64,000 nucleotides of DNA from an uncultured Bacteroidales bacterium (GCA_963765005.1 CAVXUP010000008.1:12941-76940), one strand, 5' to 3'. Shown: positions 5,920-56,915, numbered from the stretch's first letter. The notes: generated by a model from the letters alone, not told the origin. Program-made: numbers and translations.

Positions 5920-6151
5920 TTTAATTTTTTTTACACCGCTTTTCGAATTTGTTTTTAGGAGAACCATGTATTCCTTTAGCGAAATTAATTGAATTGTTGA
6001 ATTGTCGAAACAATATTTTTCACGTATATTTAAATACATGAATAGGAAGTACTTTAAATGACCAGACTGATCAACTTTTATAAAAGAATTACAACTTATA
6101 ATGCAGCTTATTCGTAGTTTAAAATAATAAATTTAAGCAGGAGGCAAACCA

Positions 6152-21160: not shown

Positions 21161-21781
21161 ATGCAGACAAGACTATCCATTTTTATAACATTCTTATTGC
21201 TCTGTTTATCTTGCAATACGGTTTCTGAAAAAGAGTCGACTTCTTTTCTCAGGATATCCGAAAACAGAAGATATCTGACTACTGAAAACGGCAAACCATT
21301 TTTCTGGCTGGGCGATACAGGATGGCTGCTCTTTACAAAACTTACACGCGAAGAGGCAGAAAAATACTTTGAAGACAGGCGTCAGAAGGGATTCAATGTG
21401 ATACAGATTATGGTGCTGCATAATGTAAGTAAGGCAGTAAATGTTTACGGAGATTCTGCACTTGTAAACCAGAATATTGATCAGCCATTAACAACATCCG
21501 GAAATTCGTCTGATAACCCTGAACAATATGATTACTGGGACCATGTTGATTACCTTATAAACCTGGCCGGGGAAAAAGGTTTATATATGGCCCTTGTGCC
21601 TGTGTGGGGCTCCAACATCAGGAGCGGCAGGATAAGCAGTGAAAAAGCAGGAAAATATGCAGCCTGGCTTGCAGCAAGGTATAAGGACAAGTCAAATGTC
21701 ATCTGGCTGAACGGCGGCGATATTAAAGGCAGTGATTCAACAGCCATATGGAAAACTATAGGTCTACTATACGACAAGTAA
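21161..21781 (+). CDS. GH140-like (DUF4038 apiosidase-like) glycoside hydrolase, fragment 1 of 3
   Basis: Signal peptide plus ENGKPFFWLGDTGWLLF...RRQKGFNVIQIMVL. The frame breaks near 21761-21765. Confidence 0.8.
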   Translation: MQTRLSIFITFLLLCLSCNTVSEKESTSFLRISENRRYLTTENGKPFFWLGDTGWLLFTKLTREEAEKYFEDRRQKGFNVIQIMVLHNVSKAVNVYGDSALVNQNIDQPLTTSGNSSDNPEQYDYWDHVDYLINLAGEKGLYMALVPVWGSNIRSGRISSEKAGKYAAWLAARYKDKSNVIWLNGGDIKGSDSTAIWKTIGLLYDK

Positions 21782-22005
21782 GTCCGGATCAGCTCATTAC
21801 CTTTCATCCCTTCGGCCGGACACAATCATCAGAATGGTTCCATAACGAAACATGGCTCGATTTCAATATGTTTCAATCGGGCCACCGCAGGTACGATCAG
21901 GATACTTCAGGACTGGCTTACGGGGAAGATAACTGGAAATATGCTGTTGATGATTATGGTAAAACGCCGATTAAAGCCAACTCTCGATGGAGAACCTTCA
22001 TATGA
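21748..22005 (+). CDS. GH140-like glycoside hydrolase, fragment 2 of 3
   Basis: Continues the DUF4038 domain (ITFHPFGRTQSSEWFHNETWLDFNMFQSGH). The frame breaks again at the A3 run 21973-21975. Confidence 0.75.
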   Translation: MENYRSTIRQVSPDQLITFHPFGRTQSSEWFHNETWLDFNMFQSGHRRYDQDTSGLAYGEDNWKYAVDDYGKTPIKANSRWRTFI

Positions 22006-22552
22006 AGGCATTCCACAGGGTCTTCACGATCCGGCTCAGCCATACTGGACCGACTCAGATATCCGGCGTTACGCTTACTGGTCGGTATTTGCAGGTGGTT
22101 GCGGTTTTACCTATGGTCACAATGCCATAATGCAATTTCATAAGGAAGGCGATAAGGAATCCTCATACGGTGTTAAAGAAACCTGGGACACTGCTTTGAA
22201 CGCTCCGGGAGCATCTCAGATGAGATATCTGAAAGAGCTTATGCTTTCCCGGTCATATTTTGACAGGATCCCGGCGCAGGATCTTATTTCAGGCAGCCAG
22301 GGGGAAAAGTATGATTATCTTGCTGCGACGAGAGGCAAAGATTATGCTTTTATTTACACCTGCAACGGCAGTGTTTTGAATATTGACCTTGGAAAAACCA
22401 ATCTTCCGGGAATTAAAGCCTCATGGTATAATCCCAGGGATGGGAAATTTAATGATATCGGCGAGTTTAAAGCTGAAGGAATTAAAACTTTTGATCCGCC
22501 CGGAGACAGATCCCCAGGTAATGACTGGGTACTTGTACTGGATCGCAATTAA
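21941..22552 (+). CDS. GH140-like glycoside hydrolase, fragment 3 of 3 (includes a C-terminal collagenase-like binding domain)
   Basis: LDGEPSYEGIP...YAYWSVFAGGCGFTYGHN plus the C-terminal ASWYNPRDGKF...NDWVLVLD. Confidence 0.78.
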   Translation: MLLMIMVKRRLKPTLDGEPSYEGIPQGLHDPAQPYWTDSDIRRYAYWSVFAGGCGFTYGHNAIMQFHKEGDKESSYGVKETWDTALNAPGASQMRYLKELMLSRSYFDRIPAQDLISGSQGEKYDYLAATRGKDYAFIYTCNGSVLNIDLGKTNLPGIKASWYNPRDGKFNDIGEFKAEGIKTFDPPGDRSPGNDWVLVLDRN

Positions 22553-22558
22553 ACAATA

Positions 22559-22591
22559 GGAAGACGGAAGACCGAAGACCGAAGACCGAAG
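22559..22591. repeat. Tandem 7-mer array (GGAAGAC/CGAAGAC, about 4.7 copies)
   Basis: Read directly as ggaagac ggaagac cgaagac cgaagac cgaag. Begins 6 nt after the GH140 stop and is followed by tattttt. Confidence 0.9.
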
Positions 22592-26612: not shown

Positions 26613-27215
26613 ATGAGTATTGTAAATCAGAAAGACATTAATCGTCTTCTTAAAACTGACAGGTTATTTGAATCAATCCATGAAAGGTTTGGTCCTCCCC
26701 CGGACTGGACAAGACCCCGGGGATTCATTTCATTATCAAGGATAATACTTGAGCAGAACGTTAGCCTGGCTTCTGCATATGCACATTTTCTCAAACTCGA
26801 GGGTTATCTTTCTGAATTTACACCTGCCAGTATTCTCCGGCTTTCCGATGAGGAGATGAGATATTGTCATATCAGCCGTCAGAAAGCAACATATCTCCGG
26901 GCACTGTCGACTGCAATTACTGCCAAGTCCATTGAACTTGAAACACTGCCGGGACTGAATGAACCGGAAGTAAGAAAGAAGCTTACTGCAATCAAAGGCA
27001 TTGGTGACTGGACAGCTGATATTTATTTGATGTTTTGCCTTCAGTCGCGAGACATTTTCCCGATAGGAGATATCGCAATTGTAAATACTGTTAAGGAATT
27101 GACTGATGCCAGAACCAAAGAAGAGATTGTTTCGCTTGCCGGAAAATGGAAACCACTCCGGTCTCTGGGAACCTATTTTTTGTGGCACTATTACTTAAGC
27201 AAAAGAAAAAAATAA
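26613..27215 (+). CDS. DNA-3-methyladenine glycosylase II-like HhH-GPD protein
   Basis: HhH motif IKGIGDWTADIYLMF followed by the catalytic Asp context FPIGDIAI. Confidence 0.85.
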   Translation: MSIVNQKDINRLLKTDRLFESIHERFGPPPDWTRPRGFISLSRIILEQNVSLASAYAHFLKLEGYLSEFTPASILRLSDEEMRYCHISRQKATYLRALSTAITAKSIELETLPGLNEPEVRKKLTAIKGIGDWTADIYLMFCLQSRDIFPIGDIAIVNTVKELTDARTKEEIVSLAGKWKPLRSLGTYFLWHYYLSKRKK

Positions 27216-27265
27216 TTGAAGTGCCAATTATGCATTGCCGGTTTATTCTTAACTTTATAACAACC

Positions 27266-29038
27266 ATGAAATTGGCATACAAATATTTAATAGTATCAGT
27301 ACTTACAGGAATTCTGATCCTTTCAAATTCCTGTACTGAGGAATTTCTCACGAGAGAACCTCCCGGAGTTGTGGCAGGCTCTGTACTCCTGACCCCTGAC
27401 GGCATTGAAGCACTTCTTGTCGGGACTTACGGGGCTATAAGGGGGACGAGCCGCTTCGGAGGCGCCATGGGAACCGACTGGACCTACGGCAGCATCGCCT
27501 CCGATGATTGTTATGCCGGGACCAGCGCTGGAAGCTCATCTGACTATATTCATCTTGAGAGGTATGATCTTATGCCTGACAGCCCTTACCTGAGAGAAAG
27601 ATGGCGCGACTGCTACAACGGTATAGCCAGGGCAAATGCAACGCTTGAGAATCTTTCCGAAATCAGGAAAAAGGGAGCTGTCATCCCTGAGGCCAGAGCA
27701 TTACAGATAGAGGCAGAAGCAAGGTTCCTGAGAGCCTGGTTTCATTTTCAGGCAAACAAAATTTTTGAAAGAATCCCTTACATTAAGACCCCTGCCGAGT
27801 TAAGCCCCTTGCTCCCCGAGGAGGTGCCAAACACCGATCCGGCATGGGATGGAATCGAAGAGGACCTGACTTTCGCCATCGATAATCTGCCAGTCACCAA
27901 CCGGCCCGGGGAACCAGGCAGAGCTGATAAATATGCTGCAGAAGCAGTTAAGGCTCATGTTCACATGTTTCAGAAAGAGTTCAGCAAGGCAAAGGCGCTG
28001 CTTGATGACATTATTCTCAACGGAGGGTTTGAACTTGCTGACAATTTCTACGACAATTACGACATGACTCATGAGAATAATGTCGAGTCGATTTTCGAAA
28101 TCCAGGCATCAACAACTTCCACATCGAATTCATCTCTTGGGCTCTCCGGTTGTGTCTTCCACCAGAAGGGTCCTGCGAGTTGCGGAGGATGGGGATTTTT
28201 TCAGCCATCACAATGTCTGTTCGAAGCATTCCAGGTAACTCCCGGCGGATTACCGGTTATAGAGATTGAAAACCGCGAGCCGCTTACGAATGACATGGGT
28301 ATAGGAAGTACCGGAACCTTTATACCTACTTCTCATCTTCTCGATCCACGTGTTGACTGGACAATAGCACGACGCGGGATTGATTTTCTGGGCTGGGGCA
28401 TTCATCCGGGAAATTCATGGATAAGGGAACAAGATTACGGAGGGCCTTATATGACCAAAAAATTCATGCACTTCAAATCCGAGCAAAGTCTTAATTTATC
28501 AGGATCAGGTTTTGATAACGGCAAGAATTACAGGATCTATCGCCTTGCAAATATTCTGCTATGGCGAGCTGAGATTGCTGTTGAAGAAAATGATTACGAG
28601 CTTGCCAGGACACTTGTGAACAGGGTCAGGGAAAGGGCAAAAAACAGCAAGCCAGTAATGGGTCTTTGCACCAGCTATTCAAATCTTGAGAACAATCCAG
28701 CAGTAGATTATACAAAGCCTGCAGCGAACTATAAAGTTGAGCCCTATGCACCGGGGCATCCTGCATTTACATCGCAGAGTGAGGCGCGAAAAGCCGTGAG
28801 AATGGAGATCAGGCTGGAATTTGCAACTGAAGGGAATCGCTTTTTCGATCTGCGTCGCTGGGGTATTGACAATGAGGTCATTAACGACTATATCGCACGC
28901 GATTCAAAATTCAGGAAATACCTGAAAGGCGCTGTCTATGATCCTGAAAAAAATGACTACTGGCCGTTGCCGATCGACCAGGTAAAGTTTCAGAAAGATG
29001 TACTGGTACAGGATTCCTCCTATATGCAGAAAATTTAG
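27266..29038 (+). CDS. RagB/SusD-family nutrient-binding outer-membrane lipoprotein
   Basis: Lipobox LSNSC at ATG 27266. TPR-like SusD blocks: EARFLRAWFHFQ, YRLANILLWRAE, RLEFATEGNRFFDLRRWG. The track start at 27146 overlaps alkA and is rejected. Confidence 0.92.
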   Translation: MKLAYKYLIVSVLTGILILSNSCTEEFLTREPPGVVAGSVLLTPDGIEALLVGTYGAIRGTSRFGGAMGTDWTYGSIASDDCYAGTSAGSSSDYIHLERYDLMPDSPYLRERWRDCYNGIARANATLENLSEIRKKGAVIPEARALQIEAEARFLRAWFHFQANKIFERIPYIKTPAELSPLLPEEVPNTDPAWDGIEEDLTFAIDNLPVTNRPGEPGRADKYAAEAVKAHVHMFQKEFSKAKALLDDIILNGGFELADNFYDNYDMTHENNVESIFEIQASTTSTSNSSLGLSGCVFHQKGPASCGGWGFFQPSQCLFEAFQVTPGGLPVIEIENREPLTNDMGIGSTGTFIPTSHLLDPRVDWTIARRGIDFLGWGIHPGNSWIREQDYGGPYMTKKFMHFKSEQSLNLSGSGFDNGKNYRIYRLANILLWRAEIAVEENDYELARTLVNRVRERAKNSKPVMGLCTSYSNLENNPAVDYTKPAANYKVEPYAPGHPAFTSQSEARKAVRMEIRLEFATEGNRFFDLRRWGIDNEVINDYIARDSKFRKYLKGAVYDPEKNDYWPLPIDQVKFQKDVLVQDSSYMQKI

Positions 29039-29150
29039 ACGCACGACGCAGGGCACACGACAAACGACGCACGACACAGGGCATACGATGCAGGAATAAC
29101 GACACAGGGCGAGCAACGTGGATCGTGTGTCGTGAGCCGTGCATCCTGCG
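29039..29150. repeat. Degenerate oligo-repeat patch (ACGAC[GA]CAGGG / CACGAC units) whose last ~28 nt are inverted
   Basis: Read directly as ...acgacgcaggg...acgacacaggg...acgatgcagga...acgacacaggg... then tcgtgtgtcgtgagccgtgcatcctgcg. Starts 1 nt after the SusD stop. Confidence 0.8.
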
Positions 29151-29175
29151 AAAAAACAAATTACGAATCGGATAT

Positions 29176-29733
29176 ATGAAACCTATATATTTTTCAGATC
29201 AGTCAGCCTTCAGAAAGTGGCTCGAGAAAAACCATAAAAAAGAAAAGGAACTTATTGTAGGCTTTTACAAGAAGGAGAGCGGCAAGCTTAACATGACATG
29301 GTCACAGTCTGTCGATCAGGCTCTTTGTTTTGGATGGATCGACGGGATCAGAAGATCGATAGATAAGGACAGCTACTGTATACGCTTTACTCCACGAAGG
29401 ACTACAAGTGTATGGAGTAAGGTAAACATAAACAAGGTTGAAGAGCTGACAAAGAAGGGCTTAATGCAACCTGCAGGGCTTGAAATATACAAACTCAGGA
29501 AAGAAGAAAAGTCAGGGATCTTCAGTTACGAAAGCGAGGCTAAACAACTTGAAAAGGATTTTGAAAACAGGTTCAAGGCATGTAAAAGTGCCTGGGAGTT
29601 TTTTACACATCAAGCCCCTTCTTATCAAAAAATGATTATTCACTGGATACTCGCTGCCAAGCAGGAAGCAACAAAGGCAAGACGACTCGAAAAGGTTATT
29701 GCTGAAAGCGAAAAGCAGAAGCGGATATTCTGA
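29176..29733 (+). CDS. YdeI/OmpD-associated family protein
   Basis: FRKWLEKNH...GFYKKESGK..MTWSQSVDQALCFGWIDGIRRSIDKDSYCIRFTPRRTTSVWS is the family signature. ATG at 29176. Confidence 0.85.
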   Translation: MKPIYFSDQSAFRKWLEKNHKKEKELIVGFYKKESGKLNMTWSQSVDQALCFGWIDGIRRSIDKDSYCIRFTPRRTTSVWSKVNINKVEELTKKGLMQPAGLEIYKLRKEEKSGIFSYESEAKQLEKDFENRFKACKSAWEFFTHQAPSYQKMIIHWILAAKQEATKARRLEKVIAESEKQKRIF

Positions 29734-29765
29734 GCGAAATGACTGCTATCCTGATAAATTGGTCA

Positions 29766-29810
29766 GGCACACGACACACGACGCACGACATACGGCACGC
29801 GACACACGGC
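29766..29810. repeat. CACGAC-type oligo-repeat patch
   Basis: ggcacacgacacacgacgcacgacatacggcacgcgacacacggc. Its cacgacacacga (29769-29780) is the exact reverse complement of tcgtgtgtcgtg (29123-29134). Confidence 0.8.
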
Positions 29811-29827
29811 AAAAGGCTTATGCGTTA

Positions 29828-31183
29828 TTATCTCCTGACTTGTCCAGGAAAGACAGCCAGGCTCTCGTGACCTCCAGCATCGACAGCCTGGATGCCAAAG
29901 AAGTAGTTGTCCTTTGAATACGGAATGGTAATTTCATTCCCCGTGACAAATATCTTCCTTTCCCACAGAGGCTGATATGTTTCCCTCATAAGTATGTAAT
30001 AACCTGCAGGCTTGACGCCTTTCGCAGGGGATTCCCACTTCAAAGTTGTCTTGTTTGTAAGTCCTGCGGTAACGATCCCGCAGTTCACCGGCTCACAGGG
30101 AGCCAGTGCAAGCGAAGCAATTGTAGAAAGGTTGATGCCGGCATTCTTTCTTACATATTCATAGTCGACAGATTCCGGGAGGTCTCCAAGCTGGACCCCG
30201 TTTACAATTTCCGGAATCTTATGAGTCCGGTCGTAGTTCTCGTTGTATTCGCAGATCCTGACTGCGGTGAAGCCCTCCTGGCAGAAAGGCGAATGGTCGC
30301 CGCCACGGCCAAACCTGTCATTCCTGAAGACAAGAGTTACATTGAGCTGATCAACATATTTCTCCCCGGTTTCCTTTATATAACGTGCAAGCTGCCTTGC
30401 TTTGCTGTCATTCTCCCCGGAAGAAAATTTCCTTAATGTAGCCATCTGTTCCGTTTCGTATGCCGGAACTCCTTCGCTGAAAACCCTTACCCTCATGTTA
30501 TCATTAAGCAGCGTCTCGCTCGAACCGCTGTTTCCTATCATATCGTTGTTGAGCATTGCGATAATATTCCATTTCTCCTCCTTTGCCTTTGCGGCCATAT
30601 GTTTTGCTCCATAAAGACCATGCTCCTCGCCCGAAACTGCCATAAATACTATAGTAGCAGAGAATTTCTGAGGCGACATTATCCTTATCATCTCCAGGAT
30701 TGCCGCGATACCCGATCCGTCGTCGTTTGCGCCGGGGGCATAGCTTGTGCTGTCGTTGTCGAGGGCGGCCCTTGAATCGAGGTGGGCACTGATCAGGATC
30801 TTCCTGTCATCGGAAGGGTCAGTACCCTTAAGTGTGGCAACTACATTCTTCAGTTTCACCGGCTTGCTAATTCTCTGTCCGGGTCCGCCGACTGAGTATT
30901 CTTCAAATTTAACTTCAAGCCTTCCTCCGGAAGAGGGAATGCTTTTCTCCATCTCCGATTTTATCCAGTTCCAGGAAGCTCCGATCCCTTTTGCAGGATC
31001 AGTCTGAACACTCAGGTTGTGACGTGTATGAAAGCTCACAAGTTTCCGGACATGCTGTTCTATCCTTTCAGCTGAGATCTCATCAACCATCTTTTTTATC
31101 TCCGGATCGCGGTTTATTATTGTCTGTCCTCCAGCCGCATTTATCAGTGCCGAGAATATCAAAATAGAAAGTGACTTTTTCAT
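29828..31183 (-). CDS. M28-family aminopeptidase with signal peptide and C-terminal Fn3-like domain
   Basis: APGANDDGSGIAAILE and SGEEHGLYGAKH metal-ligand blocks. The ATG at 31183 overlaps the upstream stop (ATGA). Confidence 0.88.
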   Translation of the reverse strand: MKKSLSILIFSALINAAGGQTIINRDPEIKKMVDEISAERIEQHVRKLVSFHTRHNLSVQTDPAKGIGASWNWIKSEMEKSIPSSGGRLEVKFEEYSVGGPGQRISKPVKLKNVVATLKGTDPSDDRKILISAHLDSRAALDNDSTSYAPGANDDGSGIAAILEMIRIMSPQKFSATIVFMAVSGEEHGLYGAKHMAAKAKEEKWNIIAMLNNDMIGNSGSSETLLNDNMRVRVFSEGVPAYETEQMATLRKFSSGENDSKARQLARYIKETGEKYVDQLNVTLVFRNDRFGRGGDHSPFCQEGFTAVRICEYNENYDRTHKIPEIVNGVQLGDLPESVDYEYVRKNAGINLSTIASLALAPCEPVNCGIVTAGLTNKTTLKWESPAKGVKPAGYYILMRETYQPLWERKIFVTGNEITIPYSKDNYFFGIQAVDAGGHESLAVFPGQVRR

Positions 31184-32565
31184 GAGCAAACTGCTTCGAC
31201 TTCTTTTATGCTTTTTGGAATTGCCTTGCCGAGGACCTTGTGACCCTTTTCGGTAATGAGGACATCATCCTCGAGCCGGATGCCGCCGATTGACATATAC
31301 TTATCGAGTTTGCTGTAATTGATGAAGTCTTTGTATTTGCCTTCCGATTTCCATCTTTCGATGAGTTCAGGGATGAAATAGCATCCCGGTTCAATAGTAA
31401 GGACATGTCCGGGTTTGTAGGGAAGTGCAAAACGGAGGTAAGCAGTTCCAAACTGGTCGCTCCTCTTAACCTCTTCGTTGTATCCGATATAATTTTCTCC
31501 AAGACTTTCCATATCGTGAACATCGAGGCCCATCATGTGTCCAAGGCCATGAGGCATGAAAAGAGTGTGTGCACCTGCTGCCACTGCCTCATCGATATCT
31601 CCTTTCATCAGTCCCAGAGCTTTCATCTCCTCAGCAATTATTCTGCAAGCCATGAAATGCGTATCGCGGTTCGACATCCCTGGTTTCATTGCTTTTATAC
31701 ATTCGGTATTTGCTTTATAGACAATCTCGTAAATCTCTTTCTGCTGGGTGCTGAATTTTCCGCCGACAGGAGTGGTACGGGTAATGTCGCTGGCATAATG
31801 CAGATTTGTTTCAGCGCCTGCATCGGTTACCAGCATTTTACCCTTCTTTAAAACATTTCCATGGGCATGATTATGCAGTGTCTGACCGTTTATGCTGAGA
31901 ATTATAGGAAAGGAAGTTCCGCCGCCTTTTGAAAGGGCTATACCCTCAAGAGTGCCAAAGATTTCCTGTTCCCTGATCCCGGGTTTGCACATTTTCATGG
32001 CGGTGACATGCATCTCATATGCAATATCCACAGCATTTTCTATCTCGTCAATTTCTATCTTTTCCTTTATCGACCTCAATGAGATCACCGCCTTAATAAG
32101 CTCAACAGAAGCAAGGGTCTTCATCTGGCAAGGGTTTTCCTTGAGAAGTGAGCCCAGGGTCATTTTCGATTCTCCCCGGTATGGCGGAAGAAAATGGATC
32201 TTTCTTTTCTTCGACAAGGCATCCTTAATCACTTCTTCGAGCTTCGAAAGCGGAGCTGAATCCGTGACGGCACATTTGAGAGCCAGCTCCTTTACTGTCG
32301 GTTGCGGTCCCATCCATATTATGTCATCTATATCGTAGTCGTTCCCAAAGACAATGTCTTTTCCGGAATCGAAATCCATCAAAGCCACAAAATCCGGATG
32401 GTCAAGTCCGAAAAAATAGAGGAAATCACTATCCTGACGGAAGTGATATGTGTTTGCAGGGTAATTCATAGGGGCTTCTACATTCCCGATGAATAATGCA
32501 AGACCGGATTTCATTAGTGAGTGCAGCTTTGCACGTCGTCCTTTATATACCTCCGCTTTAAACAT
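31180..32565 (-). CDS. pepP: Xaa-Pro aminopeptidase (M24B)
   Basis: AMP_N domain plus HGLGHMMGLDVHD and the LTIEPG / IRLEDD metal-ligand blocks. Confidence 0.9.
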   Translation of the reverse strand: MFKAEVYKGRRAKLHSLMKSGLALFIGNVEAPMNYPANTYHFRQDSDFLYFFGLDHPDFVALMDFDSGKDIVFGNDYDIDDIIWMGPQPTVKELALKCAVTDSAPLSKLEEVIKDALSKKRKIHFLPPYRGESKMTLGSLLKENPCQMKTLASVELIKAVISLRSIKEKIEIDEIENAVDIAYEMHVTAMKMCKPGIREQEIFGTLEGIALSKGGGTSFPIILSINGQTLHNHAHGNVLKKGKMLVTDAGAETNLHYASDITRTTPVGGKFSTQQKEIYEIVYKANTECIKAMKPGMSNRDTHFMACRIIAEEMKALGLMKGDIDEAVAAGAHTLFMPHGLGHMMGLDVHDMESLGENYIGYNEEVKRSDQFGTAYLRFALPYKPGHVLTIEPGCYFIPELIERWKSEGKYKDFINYSKLDKYMSIGGIRLEDDVLITEKGHKVLGKAIPKSIKEVEAVCS

Positions 32566-38280: not shown

Positions 38281-39831
38281 ATGGCTCAGGAAGATGTTTT
38301 CAGGAAACTGGTTGCACACTGTAAGGAATACGGGTATGTTTTTCCCTCAAGTGAGATCTATGACGGCTTAAGCGCAGTGTATGATTATGGTCAATATGGT
38401 GTTGAACTCAAAAACAATATAAAGAAATACTGGTGGGACAGCATGGTCCTTCTCAATGACAATATTGTAGGACTCGACTCGGCAATATTCATGCATCCCA
38501 CTATCTGGAAGGCATCAGGACATGTCGATGCATTCAATGATCCGCTTATTGACAACAAGGACTCAAAAAAGAGATACCGCGCCGATGTTCTTATCGAAGA
38601 GCACCTTGCAAAGATCGAGGACAAGATCACCAAGGAGGTTGAAAAGGCAAGGGAGCGATTCGGTGAGGCTTTTGATGAGAAGAAATTCAGGGAAACAAAC
38701 CCGAGGGTTGTCGCTAACCAGGCAAAGATTGATGAAATTTCTTCAAGGTTTGCGAAGGCTCTTAACGAAACCGACCTTCCTGAGATCAAGCAGATAATTA
38801 TAGATAATGAAATTGTCTGTCCGATTTCCGGAACCCGTAACTGGACCGATGTCAGGCAATTCAACCTGATGTTCTCAACAGAGATGGGATCGACCTCGGA
38901 AGGCGCAAGCAAAATTTATCTTCGTCCCGAGACAGCCCAGGGGATCTTTGTCAATTTTCTTAATGTCCAGAAGACCGGGAGGATGAAGCTTCCGTTCGGA
39001 ATTGCCCAGATCGGGAAAGCCTTCAGAAACGAGATTGTTGCCAGGCAGTTTATCTTCAGGATGCGGGAGTTTGAGCAGATGGAGATGCAGTTCTTTGTTC
39101 AGCCGGGAACAGAACTCGGTTGGTTTGCCAGATGGAAGGAAATAAGGATGAAGTGGCATCAGGCTCTCGGCTTCGGCAGCGAAAACTATCGTTTCCACGA
39201 CCATGTGAAACTTGCTCACTATGCCAACGCAGCGACAGATATCGAATTCCGTTTCCCGTTCGGGTTCAAGGAGGTTGAAGGGATACATTCGAGAACCGAT
39301 TATGATCTGAAACAACATCAGGAGTACAGCGGAAAGAAGATGCAATATTTCGATCCCGAAAAAGGAGAATCATATGTGCCATTTGTAATTGAAACATCTA
39401 TCGGCGTTGACAGGATGTTCCTTCAGGTGATTTCCGCAGCATATTGCGAAGAGGAGCTTAAGAAGGAGGACGGAACAACCGACACAAGGGTTGTTCTCCG
39501 GCTTCCATCCTTCCTTGCACCGGTAAAGCTTGCTGTAATGCCTCTTGTCAAGAAGGACGGTCTTCCCGAGATCGCCGAAAAGATTGTGCATGACCTGAAG
39601 TTTGACTTTAACTGCCAGTACGACGACAAGGATTCTATAGGCAGGCGATACAGGAGACAGGATGCCATCGGAACACCATATTGCATTACTATAGATCATC
39701 AGACTATCGAAGACAACAGCGTCACTATCAGATATCGCGACTCGATGGAACAGGAGCGCGTAAGTATTGAGAAACTTCAGTCGATCATAAAAGAAAAAGT
39801 CTCTATTCAAAGCTTGCTTAAAAAGCTGTAG
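38281..39831 (+). CDS. glyQS: Glycine--tRNA ligase (homodimeric class II)
   Basis: 516 aa with class II motifs and a C-terminal anticodon-binding domain. The stop TAG lies inside the first unit of the 9-mer array. Confidence 0.95.
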   Translation: MAQEDVFRKLVAHCKEYGYVFPSSEIYDGLSAVYDYGQYGVELKNNIKKYWWDSMVLLNDNIVGLDSAIFMHPTIWKASGHVDAFNDPLIDNKDSKKRYRADVLIEEHLAKIEDKITKEVEKARERFGEAFDEKKFRETNPRVVANQAKIDEISSRFAKALNETDLPEIKQIIIDNEIVCPISGTRNWTDVRQFNLMFSTEMGSTSEGASKIYLRPETAQGIFVNFLNVQKTGRMKLPFGIAQIGKAFRNEIVARQFIFRMREFEQMEMQFFVQPGTELGWFARWKEIRMKWHQALGFGSENYRFHDHVKLAHYANAATDIEFRFPFGFKEVEGIHSRTDYDLKQHQEYSGKKMQYFDPEKGESYVPFVIETSIGVDRMFLQVISAAYCEEELKKEDGTTDTRVVLRLPSFLAPVKLAVMPLVKKDGLPEIAEKIVHDLKFDFNCQYDDKDSIGRRYRRQDAIGTPYCITIDHQTIEDNSVTIRYRDSMEQERVSIEKLQSIIKEKVSIQSLLKKL

Positions 39832-39860
39832 AGGCTGTAGAGGCTGTAAAGGCTGTAGAG
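39825..39860. repeat. Tandem 9-mer array (GCTGTAGAG, 4 copies)
   Basis: gctgtagag gctgtagag gctgtaaag gctgtagag. Supplies four in-frame stop codons after glyQS. Confidence 0.92.
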
Positions 39861-39890
39861 GGAAGAAGTGGTAAATTAAAATCAGTGAGA

Positions 39891-40247
39891 ATGGCCCATC
39901 CATGGAAAGATCTGATTGTGTGGCAAAAAGCTCATAAATTTGTACTTGAAATTTACAAGTTAACAGATAGTTTTCCTGAAAAAGAAAGATTTGGATTGAT
40001 TCAGCAAATCAGAAAATCGTCTGCCTCAACTGCAGCAAATATTGTTGAAGGAAAATCAAAAAATACTGATAAGGAATTTTTAGCTTTCCTTTATAATTCA
40101 CGAGGTTCACTGGAAGAAACACGCTATCATTTACTTCTTTCAAAAGACTTAGGTTATATCAAAGAAAATGATTATGATTCATTGGAACAACTTGCAACAG
40201 AAGTCAGTTTCCTTCTAAATAAACTTATCTCATCCATAACAAGATGA
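39891..40247 (+). CDS. Four-helix-bundle protein (23S rRNA intervening-sequence protein / Avd family)
   Basis: WKDLIVWQKAHKFVLEIYKLTDSFPEKERFGLIQQIRKSSASTAANIVEG...SRGSLEETRYHLLLSKDLGYI is the family pattern. Confidence 0.88.
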   Translation: MAHPWKDLIVWQKAHKFVLEIYKLTDSFPEKERFGLIQQIRKSSASTAANIVEGKSKNTDKEFLAFLYNSRGSLEETRYHLLLSKDLGYIKENDYDSLEQLATEVSFLLNKLISSITR

Positions 40248-41635
40248 CCTCCTCAAAGCATCATAATAACTCTTCTCAAAAACAATCAGTCCCAGCCGAT
40301 CCTATATCTTCCGGACCCTCCTCCGCTTCTACAGCCTCTACCGCCTTTACCGCCTCTACAGCTATTCCTTCCTCCAAGGTCCTGATAGTCACGTACTATT
40401 GGCCACCAAGCGGCGGAGCGGGAGTTCAGCGTTGGCTCAAGTTCTCGAAATACCTTCCTGAATTCGGATGGGAGCCTGTAATTCTCACAATAGATCCCGA
40501 TTTTGCAGCTTATCCTGTAACTGACAGTTCCCTTGCTTCAGATGTGCCGGAAAACCTCAGAGTATTTAAGACAAGGGCAACTGATTATTTCAGCATCTAT
40601 AAAAAGGACAGGTCAAAAATCCCCTCGGCCGGTTTCGCAAATAGTGTAAATAATACACTTACAGGGAAAATTATGAGATTCATCAGGGGGAATTTCTTTA
40701 TTCCCGACCCGAGAAAAGGGTGGAACAGCTTTGCTTTCAAAAAAGCCTGTGAACTGATCTCTTCTGAAGGCATCAAACATGTAATCACTACAAGTCCCCC
40801 TCACTCCACTCAGCTCATTGGCCTCAGGCTAAAGAAAAAGTTTCCGGGAATAAAATGGATTACAGATCTGCGCGATCCCTGGACAGACATCTACTATTAT
40901 GAGCAGTTCTACCCTACCCTGCTGTCGAAATTCATTGATTCGCGTCTTGAAAAAAAAGTGCTTAAAAATGCCGACACAATAATCACAGTGGGAGAAACTC
41001 TGAAAAAGCACTTCGCAGCAAAAGAGCCTGAAGCTGAGAGGAAGACCACTGTGATTCACAATGGTTTTGATGAAGAAGATTTCAAAGAAATAAAGGCAGC
41101 CGCCCCTTCGCGATTCACCCTGACTTACGTCGGAACTCTCTCTGATATCTACCCGGTGGAAGGACTGCTGGAAGCATTAAAAAAACTACAGTCTGAAGGA
41201 ATTGATTTTATTCTGCGTTTTGTCGGGACAGTATCACCGAATTCGATGGCACTGATAAAGTCATCGCTTCCGGAAAAAAATATTGAATTTATCCCATATG
41301 CAAAACACAATGAAGCCATCCGTCATATGGCGAACTCGTCTATTCTTTTGTTAATAATACCTTCGCATAAAAGCAATAAAAGCATAATAACAGGGAAACT
41401 GTTTGAGTACCTGGGTTCAGGGAGACCGGTCCTTTGCATAGGGCCTTCCGACGGTGATGCCGCACACATAATTGAACTGTCAGCCGGGGGAAGAACAGTT
41501 GATTATTATAATTCCAAAGCTGCCGGTTCTTATATACGAGAGATAATGAATAAAAGCTATTCTGTTCAGAATTCAGGAAAAATCAGATTCTCTAGGAGGA
41601 ATATAACAGGTCAGCTGGCGGAGGTGATCCGGTAG
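40244..41635 (+). CDS. GT4-family glycosyltransferase with an atypical 44-aa Ser/Thr/Ala-rich N-terminal extension
   Basis: The conserved N-terminus KVLIVTYYWPPSGGAGVQRWLKF starts at codon 45. The ATG at 40244 overlaps the four-helix-bundle stop (ATGA). Confidence 0.85.
   Translation: MTSSKHHNNSSQKQSVPADPISSGPSSASTASTAFTASTAIPSSKVLIVTYYWPPSGGAGVQRWLKFSKYLPEFGWEPVILTIDPDFAAYPVTDSSLASDVPENLRVFKTRATDYFSIYKKDRSKIPSAGFANSVNNTLTGKIMRFIRGNFFIPDPRKGWNSFAFKKACELISSEGIKHVITTSPPHSTQLIGLRLKKKFPGIKWITDLRDPWTDIYYYEQFYPTLLSKFIDSRLEKKVLKNADTIITVGETLKKHFAAKEPEAERKTTVIHNGFDEEDFKEIKAAAPSRFTLTYVGTLSDIYPVEGLLEALKKLQSEGIDFILRFVGTVSPNSMALIKSSLPEKNIEFIPYAKHNEAIRHMANSSILLLIIPSHKSNKSIITGKLFEYLGSGRPVLCIGPSDGDAAHIIELSAGGRTVDYYNSKAAGSYIREIMNKSYSVQNSGKIRFSRRNITGQLAEVIR
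40319..40363. repeat. Tandem 9-mer array, 5 copies, inverted orientation (CTCTACAGC type)
   Basis: ctcctccgc ttctacagc ctctaccgc ctttaccgc ctctacagc. Lies inside the 5' coding region of the GT4 gene, where it is translated as ASTASTAFTASTA. Confidence 0.9.
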
Positions 41636-50732: not shown

Positions 50733-51710
50733 CTAGTATCTATCCAGCCACCTGTACCTGCGGGTATTATCGCCGAGTTTAAGGGCAAGGGTTATTTCGT
50801 GGGTACCGTAAGTTACCTTCTGGATCTCCTGAAGAGTAAAGTCGAAGGAATAACCGAAAAAGAACTTCTCATATTTGAAACCAATATTGCCAATAATCGC
50901 GCCAGCTGTGCGGTATGACAAACCCGCCCATAGATTCTGGTCGTAGATATATGTGAATCCGATATCTGCCATCGGCTTAAGCTGCTCAGACATAACAAGA
51001 AGTATTGACGGCTGCAGTTCCGTCTTTATGCCCGACTCGAAACTATAGGTCCCGAAGAGATAATAGTGCCGTTCCATCTGGTAATTATCATAGGTGGCAT
51101 CGGCAATTTTGGCTGCGCCTTCAAAAAGCTGCTCCACAGAAAAACCTGCAGAATACCTTTCATTCAGCAGGTAAGCGCCAAAGGCCATATCAGGCACGAA
51201 CATTCCCCGCCGCAGCTCATCATTCAGCCAGGGCTCATTCGGATCCTCAAAGTCGATCTGGGTTTCATCGATCTTGAAATGATACCCTGTTAAAGCGAGA
51301 CCCATAGAGAACTGAGTAGCATCCTTCAGCCTCAGATGATAGGCATAGGTAGCCTGAAATCCTGTGCGCTGAATAAGGCCGTTCCTGTCGCTGAATACAT
51401 AGCCTCCCAATCCTACCCTGCCACTATAGGCAGGCCGGAAAAAGTTGTTATTGATTTTTGTTTCTTTCAGAATGTAACTTCTTTTGAGAATCCTGGCCTG
51501 GCCGCTGAAGGAAAATGTCCTGGGAGCGCCTGTGTATCCTACCCACTGCTCACGGGCAGTCATATTGAAGCTTGTATAACCATCACTCCCTGCAACTGCA
51601 GGATTTATCATGAACTTGTTAAAGAGATACTGACTGTATATGGGAAGCTGCTGCCCGGAAGCCAGGCTTCCTGCCAGAAGACAAAGTAATATGAAAGTCA
51701 GTTTTCTCAC
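50733..51710 (-). CDS. PorP/SprF-family type IX secretion system membrane protein
   Basis: QQLPIYSQYLFNKFMINPAVAGSDGYTSFNMTAREQWVGYTGAPRTFSFSG is the PorP/SprF family start. Lies directly downstream of the adhesin CTD. Confidence 0.9.
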   Translation of the reverse strand: MRKLTFILLCLLAGSLASGQQLPIYSQYLFNKFMINPAVAGSDGYTSFNMTAREQWVGYTGAPRTFSFSGQARILKRSYILKETKINNNFFRPAYSGRVGLGGYVFSDRNGLIQRTGFQATYAYHLRLKDATQFSMGLALTGYHFKIDETQIDFEDPNEPWLNDELRRGMFVPDMAFGAYLLNERYSAGFSVEQLFEGAAKIADATYDNYQMERHYYLFGTYSFESGIKTELQPSILLVMSEQLKPMADIGFTYIYDQNLWAGLSYRTAGAIIGNIGFKYEKFFFGYSFDFTLQEIQKVTYGTHEITLALKLGDNTRRYRWLDRY

Positions 51711-54700: not shown

Positions 54701-56563
54701 AGTAACTATACGGAAAGTATCCGTCAGGTTAGCCAGCTTGTCAGTAATATACTGATCGTTAAGCAGACCGCTTGTCGGAGAGGTATAGCCTGTGACAAGC
54801 CCTGATGAAGTTACTGTATATTTAAAGCTTATTGCTCCCGTAGTGAATATGCTCGGACTCTGAAGCCGGATACTTGTGTTTGTGCTGTCGCACTGAGGGG
54901 CAGGATCGACAGGAACAGGGAAAATTCTCGGCTGCGGATTGATCCGGACAGTCAGCGAGAATGGAATTCCCAGAGCACATTCGGGTCCTGAATCTCCCGG
55001 CCGGATATGCGGGGTAAAATTGTAGATAATATTGCCCACAACATCATTGCTGTTGACAATAATATCGGTGAGTGCAGCAACCCCTGTGGCTGTCTGATTT
55101 GTAAGACCTGCTGAAAGGGTACCCGTTATACCTCCGGGATAAACAACCGGATCGAGATTGTAATACCATGTTGCGCCAGGATTGACAATATTCAGATTTG
55201 TGATGTCAAACGTGGCAGGCTGCTCGTAGCACAATTCCAGATCAGCGTCTACAAGGATCCTGGGTCTTGGGTTTATTTTTATTTCCAAAAACACTTCTAC
55301 TCCATCTGCACAATCATCGTCGCCGTCTCCGGGTCGTATATGCGGAATAAATCTGTATCCTACTGTCTGCACGTCATTTGTTGTGTTGACAATATTATCA
55401 GTAAGTGCTCCGATACCAGTGGCGGTCTGGTCTGTCAGACCTGTCGGCCAGCTGCCGGTGACTCCCAAAGGATAGGTTGTTTCTATATCGTAGTACCAGG
55501 TAGTTCCGGTATTGACTATGTTCAGCTTGGTGATATCAAATTTTGCAGGTCCATCATAGCATAACTCCGTATCAGTAGTGACGGCGATCTTTGGCTGCGG
55601 GTTGATGACTACCTCGACGGTAATCGCAACGCCTGTTTCACATTCATCCCCTCCGTCGCCCGGACGTATATGTGGAATGAACTTATAGGTAACAGTCTTA
55701 TAGTCATTGGTAGTGTTTACAAGATTATCAGTAAGTGCTCCAATACCGGTAGCGGTCTGATCGGTGAGACCCGTCGGCCAGCTGCCGGTGACTCCCAAAG
55801 GATAGGTTGTTTCTACATCGTAGTACCAGGTAGTTCCGGTATTGACTGTATTCAGCTTGGTGATATCGAATACAGCAGACCCTGTATAACAAAGCTCAGG
55901 ATCAGTGGTGACTGCTATCTTTGGCTGCGGGTTGATGACGATATCGATGGTAACCTCAACGCCTGCTTCACATTCGTCCCCTCCGTCGCCCGGACGTATA
56001 TGAGGAATGAACTTGTAGGTAACAGTCTTAAAGTCATTTGTAGTGTTTACAAGATTATCAGTAAGTGCTCCAATACCAGTGGCGGTCTGGTCTGTCAGAC
56101 CTGTCGGCCAGCTGCCGGTGACTCCCAAAGGATAGGTTGTTTCTATATCGTAGTACCAGGTAGTTCCGGTATTGACTATGTTCAGCTTGGTGATATCAAA
56201 TTTTGCAGGTCCATCATAGCATAACTCCGTATCAGTAGTGACTGCGATCTTTGGCTGCGGGTTGATCACTATCTCGACGGTAATCTCAACGCCTGCTTCA
56301 CATTCGTCCCCTCCGTCGCCCGGACGTATATGTGGAATGAACTTATAGGTAACAGTCTTAAAGTCATTGGTAGTGTTTACAAGATTATCAGTAAGTGCTC
56401 CAATACCGGTAGCGGTCTGATTGATTAACCCTGCCGACAGGGTACCGCTAACGCCCAAAGGATAAACAACAGGTGCCAGATCGTAGTACCAGGTAGTTCC
56501 GGTATTGACTCGTATTGACTGTTCAGATTTGTGATATCGAATACCGCAGACCCTGTATAACAA
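51728..56563 (-). CDS. Giant SprB-like T9SS adhesin, C-terminal fragment (110-aa modules, diverged PKD-like modules, about 10 SprB repeats, type-B CTD)
   Basis: CTD: NAISPNGDLINDVWNI...VINRWGATIW...WDGRSGGKVLPIDSYHYMI. SprB repeats of the type CNGGNDGYINITINGG...YSWTGPDGFTS...AGTYTVTVRDNTGC. Confidence 0.9.
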   Translation of the reverse strand: MLYRVCGIRYHKSEQSIRVNTGTTWYYDLAPVVYPLGVSGTLSAGLINQTATGIGALTDNLVNTTNDFKTVTYKFIPHIRPGDGGDECEAGVEITVEIVINPQPKIAVTTDTELCYDGPAKFDITKLNIVNTGTTWYYDIETTYPLGVTGSWPTGLTDQTATGIGALTDNLVNTTNDFKTVTYKFIPHIRPGDGGDECEAGVEVTIDIVINPQPKIAVTTDPELCYTGSAVFDITKLNTVNTGTTWYYDVETTYPLGVTGSWPTGLTDQTATGIGALTDNLVNTTNDYKTVTYKFIPHIRPGDGGDECETGVAITVEVVINPQPKIAVTTDTELCYDGPAKFDITKLNIVNTGTTWYYDIETTYPLGVTGSWPTGLTDQTATGIGALTDNIVNTTNDVQTVGYRFIPHIRPGDGDDDCADGVEVFLEIKINPRPRILVDADLELCYEQPATFDITNLNIVNPGATWYYNLDPVVYPGGITGTLSAGLTNQTATGVAALTDIIVNSNDVVGNIIYNFTPHIRPGDSGPECALGIPFSLTVRINPQPRIFPVPVDPAPQCDSTNTSIRLQSPSIFTTGAISFKYTVTSSGLVTGYTSPTSGLLNDQYITDKLANLTDTFRIVTYRLVPVSPLGCADGPAENVRVTVNPTPRATPVNLMPVICSGGITDIELKSPTFMTSGTIKFDYTVRFTGVPGDIIGNSDPKNDLDPGHKMGYSYKNIAEGSRIDSVSSVLYNIIPRVVNGPACKPGRIFTSEVQVHPKTLKRIDELKSFTCDLTAGLAALKVILTKGADPYQVRWTGPVGFQSNDVEIYYLNQGPYHVVVTDNNMCRDSLDKTITQIPARPRIFPSPIPPLNNHISCPGFSDGSLRAQVSAGISPPYQFWVIYNSTDVIGSGVFSGNFNPSNPNTYKIYNNLRSGSYRIRIIDANGCEFFENAELLEPDPITIQFQNTNVSCLGYSNGSSLAIPSGGNGGYIYQWSAATGLPLGVSSNEALLDSVPAGKYYIRVFDVLGCVADLDSVTLTELPGMTASPAVISRSAHGNTNVSCNGGNDGYINITINGGVAPLFYSWTGPDGFTSTLEDISGIKAGTYTVTVRDNTGCIKLPVDTYTLTEPPVITVTVTPSPVPNGPFNISCPGGTGGIYISASGGTGGTYTYIWTTSDGSGIVPGHKDQVALTAGTYRIAVQDSNSCEIVNYITLTQPAPITGIFDVTDITCQSAGANDGELSVTGAGGVGPYTYHWLNGSTADKITGLTEGYHIVDITDANGCTGRDSARVNRPPDLLFDYLPSDYNGYAISCTGLSNGTIDITPSSGTAPFVYNWTSSTGFTSTERNITGLKAGDYYLTILDSKYCTVTDTITLDEPGIPEIKFILSESNDGGFNLNCMGDSTGTIAVETENFAGAISYYWSDGNTDQIRTGLPAGQYDLIVSDANNCSAASSVTLIQPDSIRLAFSVIDPSCPDRPDGAIQLAVTGGVISTDYTYKWSDNSSTQNLPAVAEGDFSVIVTDFNGCTATDSLFVKAINETCLIIHNAISPNGDLINDVWNIENSDLYPEMEVKVINRWGATIWVSEKGYPKPWDGRSGGKVLPIDSYHYMIDVHRGGRIIVGNITIVK
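52020..54260 (-). repeat. SprB-repeat region (about 10 diverged units of roughly 75-85 aa)
   Basis: Recurrent C.G..DG.I......G..PY.Y.W........T...I..L.AG.Y.V.V.D..GC pattern. Confidence 0.75.
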
Positions 56564-56799
56564 AGCTCAGGATCAGTGGTGACCGCTATCTTTGGCTGAG
56601 GGTTGATGACTACCTCGATAGTAACCTCAACGCCTGCTTCACATTCGTCCCCTCCGTCGCCCGGACGTATATGTGGAATGAACTTATAGGTAACAGTCTT
56701 AAAGTCATTGGTCGTGTTGACTAGATTATCTGTAAGCGCTGCAATACCGGTGGCGGTCTGATCGGTGAGACCCGTCGGCCAGCTGCCGGTGACTCCCAA
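56425..56799 (-). CDS. Giant adhesin, internal fragment (one 110-aa module)
   Basis: Same module sequence as its neighbours. Separated from them by indels at 56511-56522 and 57097-57116. Confidence 0.8.
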   Translation of the reverse strand: MGVTGSWPTGLTDQTATGIAALTDNLVNTTNDFKTVTYKFIPHIRPGDGGDECEAGVEVTIEVVINPQPKIAVTTDPELCYTGSAVFDITNLNSQYESIPELPGTTIWHLLFILWALAVPCRQG

Positions 56800-56915
56800 A
56801 GGATAGGTTGTTTCTACATCGTAGTACCAGGTAGTTCCGGTATTGACTGTATTCAGATTTGTGATATCGAATACCGCAGACCCTGTATAACAAAGCTCAG
56901 GATCAGTGGTGACCG

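Follow-up and report, generated by a model that had tools for sequence, protein, structure and literature searches.

Does the short ydeI-like gene in a 64,000-nt stretch of an uncultured Bacteroidales genome (44% GC; hereafter the window, meaning the whole stretch that was analyzed) move as the cargo of a repeat-bounded cassette, or did repeats arrive at the junctions of a gene that was already in place? The question arises from an earlier note on this DNA, which proposed that ydeI is enclosed by inverted repeats embedded in tandem arrays. We addressed it by examining the repeats themselves, their predicted RNA fold, the same junctions in related genomes, and the wider population of short-unit arrays in this group of bacteria.

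Repeat patches on both sides of ydeI

The ydeI-like ORF (29176-29733, plus strand, 558 nt) is as originally described and belongs to the YdeI/OmdA family (Pfam PF13376, 8e-16). Upstream of it on the plus strand is a SusD/RagB-like gene (27146-29038; Pfam SusD_RagB, 6e-36), which ends with the stop codon TAG at 29036-29038, and downstream is a gene for an M28 peptidase (29828-31189, minus strand; Pfam Peptidase_M28, 3e-32) that is convergent with ydeI. The intervening spacers are 137 nt (SusD-ydeI, 29039-29175) and 94 nt (ydeI-M28, 29734-29827). No SusC-like gene precedes the SusD-like gene; within 26613-29038, the ORF ahead of it encodes an HhH-GPD glycosylase-family protein. Among database proteins, P0001 is 100% identical to the window's YdeI and P0002 is the closest homologue; exact-protein look-ups with the window's YdeI and with P0001 returned nothing.

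CACGAC-type patches were indeed found in both spacers. TRF identified a degenerate heptamer/14-mer array in which CACGACR units alternate with CAGGGCA at 29038-29110 (plus strand; periods 7, 14, and 21), beginning at the G of the SusD stop codon, and a second heptamer array in the same orientation at 29766-29811 (plus strand; periods 7 and 14); the period-7 copy numbers of the two patches are 5.4 and 5.9. The first array is followed by an inverted segment of the GTCGTG type at 29117-29150. Both patches are non-coding, being located between a stop and a start codon or between two stop codons. They are also not due to chance: with two or fewer mismatches allowed, CACGACACACGA has 12 occurrences in the window versus 2.4 expected, a number that none of 100 shuffles reached, and 10 of the 12 matches fall inside the two patches. 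The CACGAC family has two copies in the 64-kb window, both at ydeI, and none elsewhere. A low-complexity scan of the whole window flagged the two ydeI patches, the GlyRS-side array of a second site at 39.8 kb, and two AT-rich stretches. The spacers also hold non-repetitive sequence (29151-29175 and 29734-29765), for which no match was found in the related loci compared.

A local hairpin and a direct copy

The exact 12-nt inverted match reported across ydeI is real, with one half, tcgtgtgtcgtg, at 29123-29134, although the other half, cacgacacacga in the downstream array, is at 29770-29781 rather than at 29769-29780 as first given; the inverted relation across the gene reaches 22 nt at 86% complementarity. 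This relation, together with a real gene-plus-inverted-array unit 10 kb away, favors the reading of ydeI as cassette cargo. However, the inverted segment at 29117-29150 pairs best with the adjacent array at 29040-29073, forming arms of 34 nt that are 79% complementary, and thus already belongs to a local hairpin. The strongest match between the two patches is direct and not inverted, with 24 of 25 positions identical between 29052-29076 and 29766-29790. Upstream of ydeI, then, an array and its own inverted copy together make a quasi-palindrome, and the layout of the locus is A - A' - ydeI - A, not the A - ydeI - A' of an enclosed gene. Because the site consists of a local hairpin and direct-copy arrays, its design also differs from that of the site at 39825-40363, with which it had been equated and where purely inverted arrays surround a four-helix-bundle gene.

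A stem at this locus had been anticipated from the earlier note, and RNA folding does predict one; it is local (29040-29073 with 29117-29150) and does not extend across ydeI. The predicted folding energy of the segment 29030-29180 is -44.2 kcal/mol (z -4.0) for the plus strand, and that of the upstream hairpin is -51.1 kcal/mol (z -5.3) for the minus strand. A fold of the whole 801-nt region retained the local upstream hairpin and left the downstream array essentially unpaired, and the downstream spacer had no structure of its own when both strands were folded (z +0.7 and +1.3). Long-range pairing across ydeI is improbable, given competition from the local hairpin.

Directly 3' of the hairpin is a run of six A residues at 29151. 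There is no T run in either ydeI spacer, and so the combination of a GC-rich stem and a U-tract that characterizes an intrinsic terminator was not found; a terminator scan also identified none at the hairpin, the sigma-70 part of that scan being uninformative for Bacteroidetes promoters. A search of Rfam 15 with the window and seven related loci returned nothing at gathering score, only chance-level matches with E-values up to 10. Readings of the patches as Z-DNA or as phase-variation (inversion) elements were considered and dropped, as neither had support.

The ydeI junctions in related genomes

A metagenome scan with YdeI as the query produced four close loci; DNA identity of YdeI to the window was 85.8% in L082, 83.0% in L083, and 80.8% in L084, all of which have ydeI at the same SusD junction. 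In L082 the same SusD end is followed by a CACGAC/GTCGTG hairpin whose proportions are reversed relative to those in the window, the left arm measuring 31 nt and the right one containing ~10 TCGTGNG units, and no CACGAC array was found downstream of ydeI. In L083 the SusD stop is separated by 2 nt from the ydeI start codon, with no array. In L084 the SusD-ydeI spacer is 21 nt, also with no array, and the ydeI stop abuts the stop of the convergent M28 gene (TGA TTA; 0 nt versus 94 nt in the window). Among the loci compared, the upstream hairpin is common only to the window and L082, with its arms completely remodelled, and repeat copy number or presence differs among the window, L082, L083, and L084. 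The orientation of ydeI relative to SusD is identical in these four, and so the change of orientation that defines an inverton was not observed.

As L083 and L084 have the SusD-ydeI junction without arrays, ydeI is resident and the arrays appear to be later insertions. The alignments show that a compact SusD-ydeI-M28 order exists without arrays and indicate that the window gained 137 nt upstream of ydeI (relative to the 2 nt of L083 and 21 nt of L084) and 94 nt downstream of it (relative to L084). Because only the closest relative has the upstream hairpin, it is parsimonious to suppose a single gain in the lineage of the window and L082, the polarity of gain rather than loss being parsimony over four sequences.

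These comparisons weigh heavily against the proposal that ydeI is the cargo of a cassette with inverted repeats in tandem arrays, moved or processed as a unit. One half of the test suggested for that proposal was whether relatives carry ydeI at this site without the arrays, and L083 and L084 do so, L084 also having ydeI abut the M28 gene. The presence and absence pattern is not that of a unit either, since ydeI and the arrays are not gained or lost as one, L082 having the upstream patch only. In addition, the attC core patterns GTTRRRY and RYYYAAC are absent from both ydeI spacers, and no tyrosine recombinase (IntI) or other recombinase was identified among those ORFs between 13 and 51 kb that were scanned with Pfam. 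We consider the cassette reading extremely improbable; as far as these sequences indicate, ydeI is not mobile cargo, and its site does not represent a new cassette mechanism.

At greater distance, neither YdeI nor this SusD was found at the site in any of 80 syntenic species-level relatives that were recovered via the nearby Dus gene; these are species representatives with a best Dus identity to the window of 88%. The strand of the M28 gene in the window and L084, where its start ATG overlaps the PepP stop (ATGA), is opposite to that in the Dus-syntenic relatives. In the latter, the M28 gene follows sdhB (L001, L003, L005, L008, L023, L027, L032, L036, L039, L051, and L056) and is convergent with PepP, except in L027, which had no PepP match. 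This strand difference represents a lineage-specific inversion or rearrangement.

The gene-and-array unit at 39825-40363

The site to which the ydeI locus had been likened is at the junction of the genes for GlyRS and a GT4 glycosyltransferase. It has an array of four GCTGTAGAG units (39825-39861, plus strand; TRF), with the GlyRS stop codon coming from the first unit, followed by a gene for a four-helix-bundle/23S rRNA IVS protein (IVP; 39891-40247, plus strand; Pfam PF05635, 6e-39) and an inverted 9-nt array (40323-40359, plus strand). The ATG of the GT4 glycosyltransferase is at 40244 and overlaps the stop of the IVP gene, and the inverted array encodes, in frame, the N-terminal extension of this enzyme. 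In ~50 relatives the GlyRS stop is 1-2 nt from the GT4 start (...AAAAAGCTTTTTAAAATGAAT...), and the PF05635 gene and inverted arrays are absent; they are present together in at least seven species, these being the window and six others (L003 15361-15976, L023 15467-15989, L069 8657-9250, and L127, L129, and L133 at ~2890-3490). The left flank in these units is composed of GCTNTARAG units, the first supplying the GlyRS stop, and the right flank of inverted units translated in frame as an AS[KT]AS glycosyltransferase extension, and the ATGA overlap between the glycosyltransferase ATG and the stop of the four-helix-bundle gene is found in six of the seven species. Hence at this site, unlike at ydeI, the gene and arrays travel together as a genuine unit. 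The idea that the two sites represent a general mechanism survives in part: their occurrence is not coincidental, both being members of a population of short-unit junction arrays found throughout the clade, and the 39825-40363 site is a true unit, but there is no bracketing at ydeI.

A test for co-variation of left and right arrays among these units gave no evidence of species-specific compensatory change, cognate arrays being no more complementary than mismatched pairings (the observed score was equalled in 794 of 5040 permutations), and the NJ tree of GlyRS DNA was star-like and gave no count of cassette gains or losses. A literature search on the IVS protein in Bacteroidetes returned nothing relevant. 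The same 9-mer, GCTNTARAG, follows sdhA in L011 without a four-helix-bundle gene, which links the 39825-40363 cassette to the general array population.

A different insert, of ~220 nt and with no ORF, is present at the GlyRS-GT4 junction of L016 (15230-15470). It is bounded on the left by two copies of GACTGAGG, which supply the GlyRS stop TGA, and on the right by three copies of AGGAATG, which supply the GT start ATG, giving MRNDIINRKVLII...; its interior is GC-rich and looks structured.

Short-unit arrays at gene junctions of related Bacteroidales

In ~1.5 Mb of related uncultured Bacteroidales loci, TRF identified 161 arrays with units of 6-12 nt, of which 128 are non-coding. Relative to a stop codon, 33 arrays start between -12 and +3 nt and 46 start within 10 nt, the latter amounting to about a third of the 128 non-coding arrays. 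Approximately a dozen arrays, detected by TRF plus local alignment, are inverted pairs with loops of 10-55 nt, that is, hairpins of tandem oligomers, with folding energies of -41 to -74 kcal/mol and units that are unrelated to one another (CCTCTGTGTT, AAAGTGACT, CGCAAAGTA, GGCACAG, and AGTCTTGC). Single-linkage clustering of array k-mers gave one cluster only and served as a listing.

The spacer between Dus and CAAX2 is ~20 nt in most species and has different hairpins in L001 and L023, which have unrelated units and were inserted independently. The sdhA-sdhB spacer varies from 7 to 389 nt across 49 species, and nearly all of those longer than 50 nt open with an array at the stop codon (units GGCGTAAA, GGCATAAC, GTCGTGCA, GGCACAG, GAAGACC, and others), with the stop codon in several species inside the first unit. 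This operon-internal spacer consists almost wholly of arrays of 7-9-nt units (for example in L027 5183-5340, L033 4186-4273, L050 6678-6795, and L052 6766-6862), that of L027 comprising ~20 copies of GGCGTAAC. Among the long sdhA-sdhB spacers 11 of 34 fold at z < -3 and about half have no excess structure, and therefore we consider the arrays to be primary and the hairpins a frequent subset.

Individual unit families recur at different junctions. L048 has arrays of GTCGTGCA/TGCACGAC at two sites separated by 3.5 kb, and such arrays are also present between sdhA and sdhB in L021, L050, L060, and L077. In L048 the two arrays (2445-2492 and 5985-6032) are inverted and flank an sdhC-sdhA segment; they would constitute another apparent bracket arising from two junction arrays of one family. 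In L005, GACTCACGACAAACTACGCACGAC directly follows the stop codon TAA of an unrelated gene. CACGAC[AG] heptamer arrays of three or more copies were also found in 20 viral contigs (L134-L153, 34-65% GC), and those in L136, L139, and L145 are directly after a stop codon. Because of this occurrence in viral contigs of varied GC, CACGAC[AG] is considered a recurrent simple-sequence type.

The window has a third junction array, GAAGACC in 4.6 copies with no inverted partner (22560-22591, plus strand; TRF), directly after a stop codon TAG at 22557-22559, and related GACCGAA arrays are between sdhA and sdhB in L036 and L039. An apiosidase-like gene in the window is divided between two ORFs, 21161-21781 and 21941-22552 (Pfam PF13204 positions 1-169 and 226-319), and is either a pseudogene or the product of an assembly indel. 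Very long tandem repeats are present at 55373-59219 (330 nt, 11.6 copies) and 59819-62764 (267 nt, 11 copies), within giant minus-strand ORFs beside a PorP/SprF gene (50733-51710); these ORFs probably encode repeat-domain surface proteins that are type IX secreted.

One class of array hairpins, with units of the CACAGAG/CGCAAAG/CACGGAG type, has a conserved end, TTGAAAAAGTCAAAATCCATTAACC, in L023, L027, L036, L039, L064, and L071, and ATCCATTAACC has 7 occurrences versus 0.76 expected. The motif (TTGAAAAAGTC)AAAATCCATTAACC adjoins hairpins of this type in several species (L023 11027-11174; L027 ~7560 and 20407; L036 8873; L039 5221; L064 16458; L071 7113). The L023 element is a nested palindrome with the ends GGGGCTGT...ACAGCCCC and looks MITE-like.

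It is feasible, although we think it unlikely, that the ydeI patches are themselves copies of a REP/BIME- or MITE-like hairpin element, mobile but non-autonomous, inserted after stop codons by an enzyme encoded elsewhere and having the tandem units as part of the element. Consistent with this, comparison with empty sites shows clean insertions, the same unit families are found in different species and at junctions that are not orthologous, the window has two copies of one family 0.6 kb from each other, and a related class of array hairpins has a conserved end in six species. That end motif, however, is absent from the CACGAC patches, and comparison with the empty sites revealed neither the target-site duplication nor the conserved termini of a MITE at either ydeI junction. 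Unit number and arm lengths are totally different between the window and L082, the family is nowhere else in the window, and the same heptamer is found in unrelated viral genomes. Furthermore, no transposase or integrase was identified among the Pfam-scanned ORFs from 13 to 51 kb, and about half of the long sdhA-sdhB spacers consist of arrays without a hairpin.

Origin and likely effect of the arrays

With moderate confidence, we take slippage combined with short-range template switching as the leading explanation, followed by a REP/MITE-like mobile element. It seems fairly probable that short-unit (7-nt) repeats of the STRR/LSSR type (short tandemly repeated repetitive sequences of cyanobacteria/long simple sequence repeats) colonized both junctions flanking a resident ydeI by these two processes. 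The compact SusD-ydeI-M28 order would have existed first and arrays would have invaded its two junctions afterwards, seeded at or next to a stop codon, where duplications spare the upstream protein, and growing or shrinking by replication slippage. Template switching over a short range, or local copying, may account for the inverted arm and the second copy and would also keep the hairpin arms alike. Heptamers are the commonest unit of long SSRs in prokaryotes, and heptamer arrays of Bacteroidetes are missing from close relatives (PMC4679880); hairpins are created and maintained by template switching (PMC8794818, PMC7202029). Against pure in-situ slippage from random seeds is the presence of similar units at non-orthologous junctions in different species, which may point to copying from one site to another or to a common constraint.

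As the gap between the SusD stop and ydeI is 2-21 nt in L083 and L084, susD and ydeI would be co-transcribed there and are probably translationally coupled. The susD-ydeI transcript of the window would have a stable intercistronic stem-loop, with no U-tract, between the two cistrons. By analogy with REPs (repetitive extragenic palindromic elements) inside E. coli operons, this stem-loop is most likely a 3'-exonuclease barrier or decoupler and not a terminator. The message upstream of it would be shielded from 3' exonucleases, and expression of ydeI would be reduced or decoupled. The downstream patch appears simply to separate two stop codons that abut in L084.

Selection for the sequence of the arrays, rather than their generation by slippage, is the basis of another reading, namely that they are cis-elements (protein binding sites or processing signals) that set the expression of neighboring cistrons. 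The arrays would then be multivalent sites for a clade-specific RNA- or DNA-binding protein, with the array the functional unit and the hairpin secondary. In many species, the arrays at stop codons and ahead of start codons belong to a limited set of recurring unit families; GCTNTARAG is kept around the four-helix-bundle gene in seven species (whose GlyRS proteins are 87-93% identical to that of the window) and is also found after sdhA in L011; and MacGregor proposed the same role for TAACTGA arrays (PMC4679880). Yet many relatives have no array at the same junctions, both unit sequence and copy number are highly variable, and the proposal is drawn from sequence patterns, its binding protein being hypothetical. 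We regard selected cis-elements as quite improbable.

A broader and doubtful possibility is that lineage-wide arrays and hairpins abutting stop codons, actively generated at junctions or copied between them, are intercistronic RNA modules that insulate, stabilize, or process transcripts, with the ydeI patches as ordinary members. If so, such modules would supply new stop and start codons when splitting overlapping genes, and the variant with a four-helix-bundle (rRNA-IVS-type) gene in its loop would correspond, in mRNA, to the intervening sequences of ribosomal RNA.

The broader significance of these arrays is that, in a poorly known Bacteroidales lineage, gene junctions of 0-20 nt have repeatedly been expanded to 100-400 nt by stop-codon arrays, which often make strong hairpins and sometimes provide the stop or start codons of the genes they separate. 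The clade represents a natural experiment on the birth of intergenic DNA, operon decoupling, and RNA hairpins, and annotators should be warned that gene ends and N-terminal extensions in it may be repeat-derived.

Comparison with known systems

The best reading of the ydeI patches is that they are junction repeats with likeness to both STRRs/LSSRs and REPs. Long simple sequence repeats were reportedly described by Mrazek et al. in 2007 (summarized in PMC4679880), and the STRR heptamer arrays of cyanobacteria are said to have been described by Mazel et al. in 1990. Arrays of TAACTGA are known from Beggiatoaceae, Cyanobacteria, and Bacteroidetes (PMC4679880). The clade arrays resemble these in being tandem 7-nt units, intergenic and often adjoining stop or start codons, in having copy numbers that vary between close relatives, and in that the spacers of relatives are shorter and repeat-free; the ydeI patches have the three or more head-to-tail copies of a 5-11-nt unit, the non-coding location, and the variability between relatives of STRRs. 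They differ from STRRs/LSSRs in that the arrays of the clade are often paired with an inverted copy to produce long hairpins, start at the stop codon itself, and occur in uncultured Bacteroidales with many different unit families.

REP/BIME sequences (PMC3733652) are, like the upstream patch, imperfect palindromes of extragenic DNA, located within operons or between convergently oriented genes, that have no U-tract and a plausible role as 3'-end mRNA stabilizers or decouplers. The ydeI stem-loop is such a palindrome, with 34-nt arms (z -4.0/-5.3) that are longer than those of a typical REP. However, REPs are conserved units of 20-40 nt that are present in hundreds of copies and linked to RAYTs in enterobacteria and pseudomonads, whereas the ydeI arms are built of tandem heptamers and the sequence in the clade differs from site to site. 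No RAYT was identified in the scanned ORFs of the window. Neither of the REP head tetranucleotides (GTAG/CGTC, PMC3733652) is on the plus strand of the ydeI spacers, and GACG (CGTC on the minus strand) occurs within ydeI units at 29045, 29066, and 29780 and not at a defined end.

The BrickBuilt MITE of Porphyromonas gingivalis (PMC4596501) is similarly an intergenic Bacteroidales sequence with tandem repeats and inverted-repeat ends, although it has a 23-nt unit, a leader and tail, and 19 near-identical copies, as opposed to the 7-nt units and lack of conserved ends of the ydeI patches. Quasipalindrome template-switch mutagenesis (PMC7202029, PMC8794818), in which one arm is copied from the other, would yield an inverted array copy such as that upstream of ydeI; it is a mutational process and not an element, and its action at ydeI is suggested by the pattern.

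Integron cassettes (an ORF plus attC) share with this locus a short ORF followed by an imperfect inverted repeat, but the ydeI site has no attC cores, no integrase in the scanned ORFs, and no cassette array, and relatives have the gene without the repeats. In the intervening sequences of 23S rRNA, an ORF for the IVS protein is in the loop of a long stem. The 39825-40363 site, and only that site, is comparable to these in having a PF05635 gene within complementary flanks that may form a long stem; it differs in that its gene is in an mRNA operon junction and not in rRNA, and in that its right flank codes for part of the glycosyltransferase that follows.
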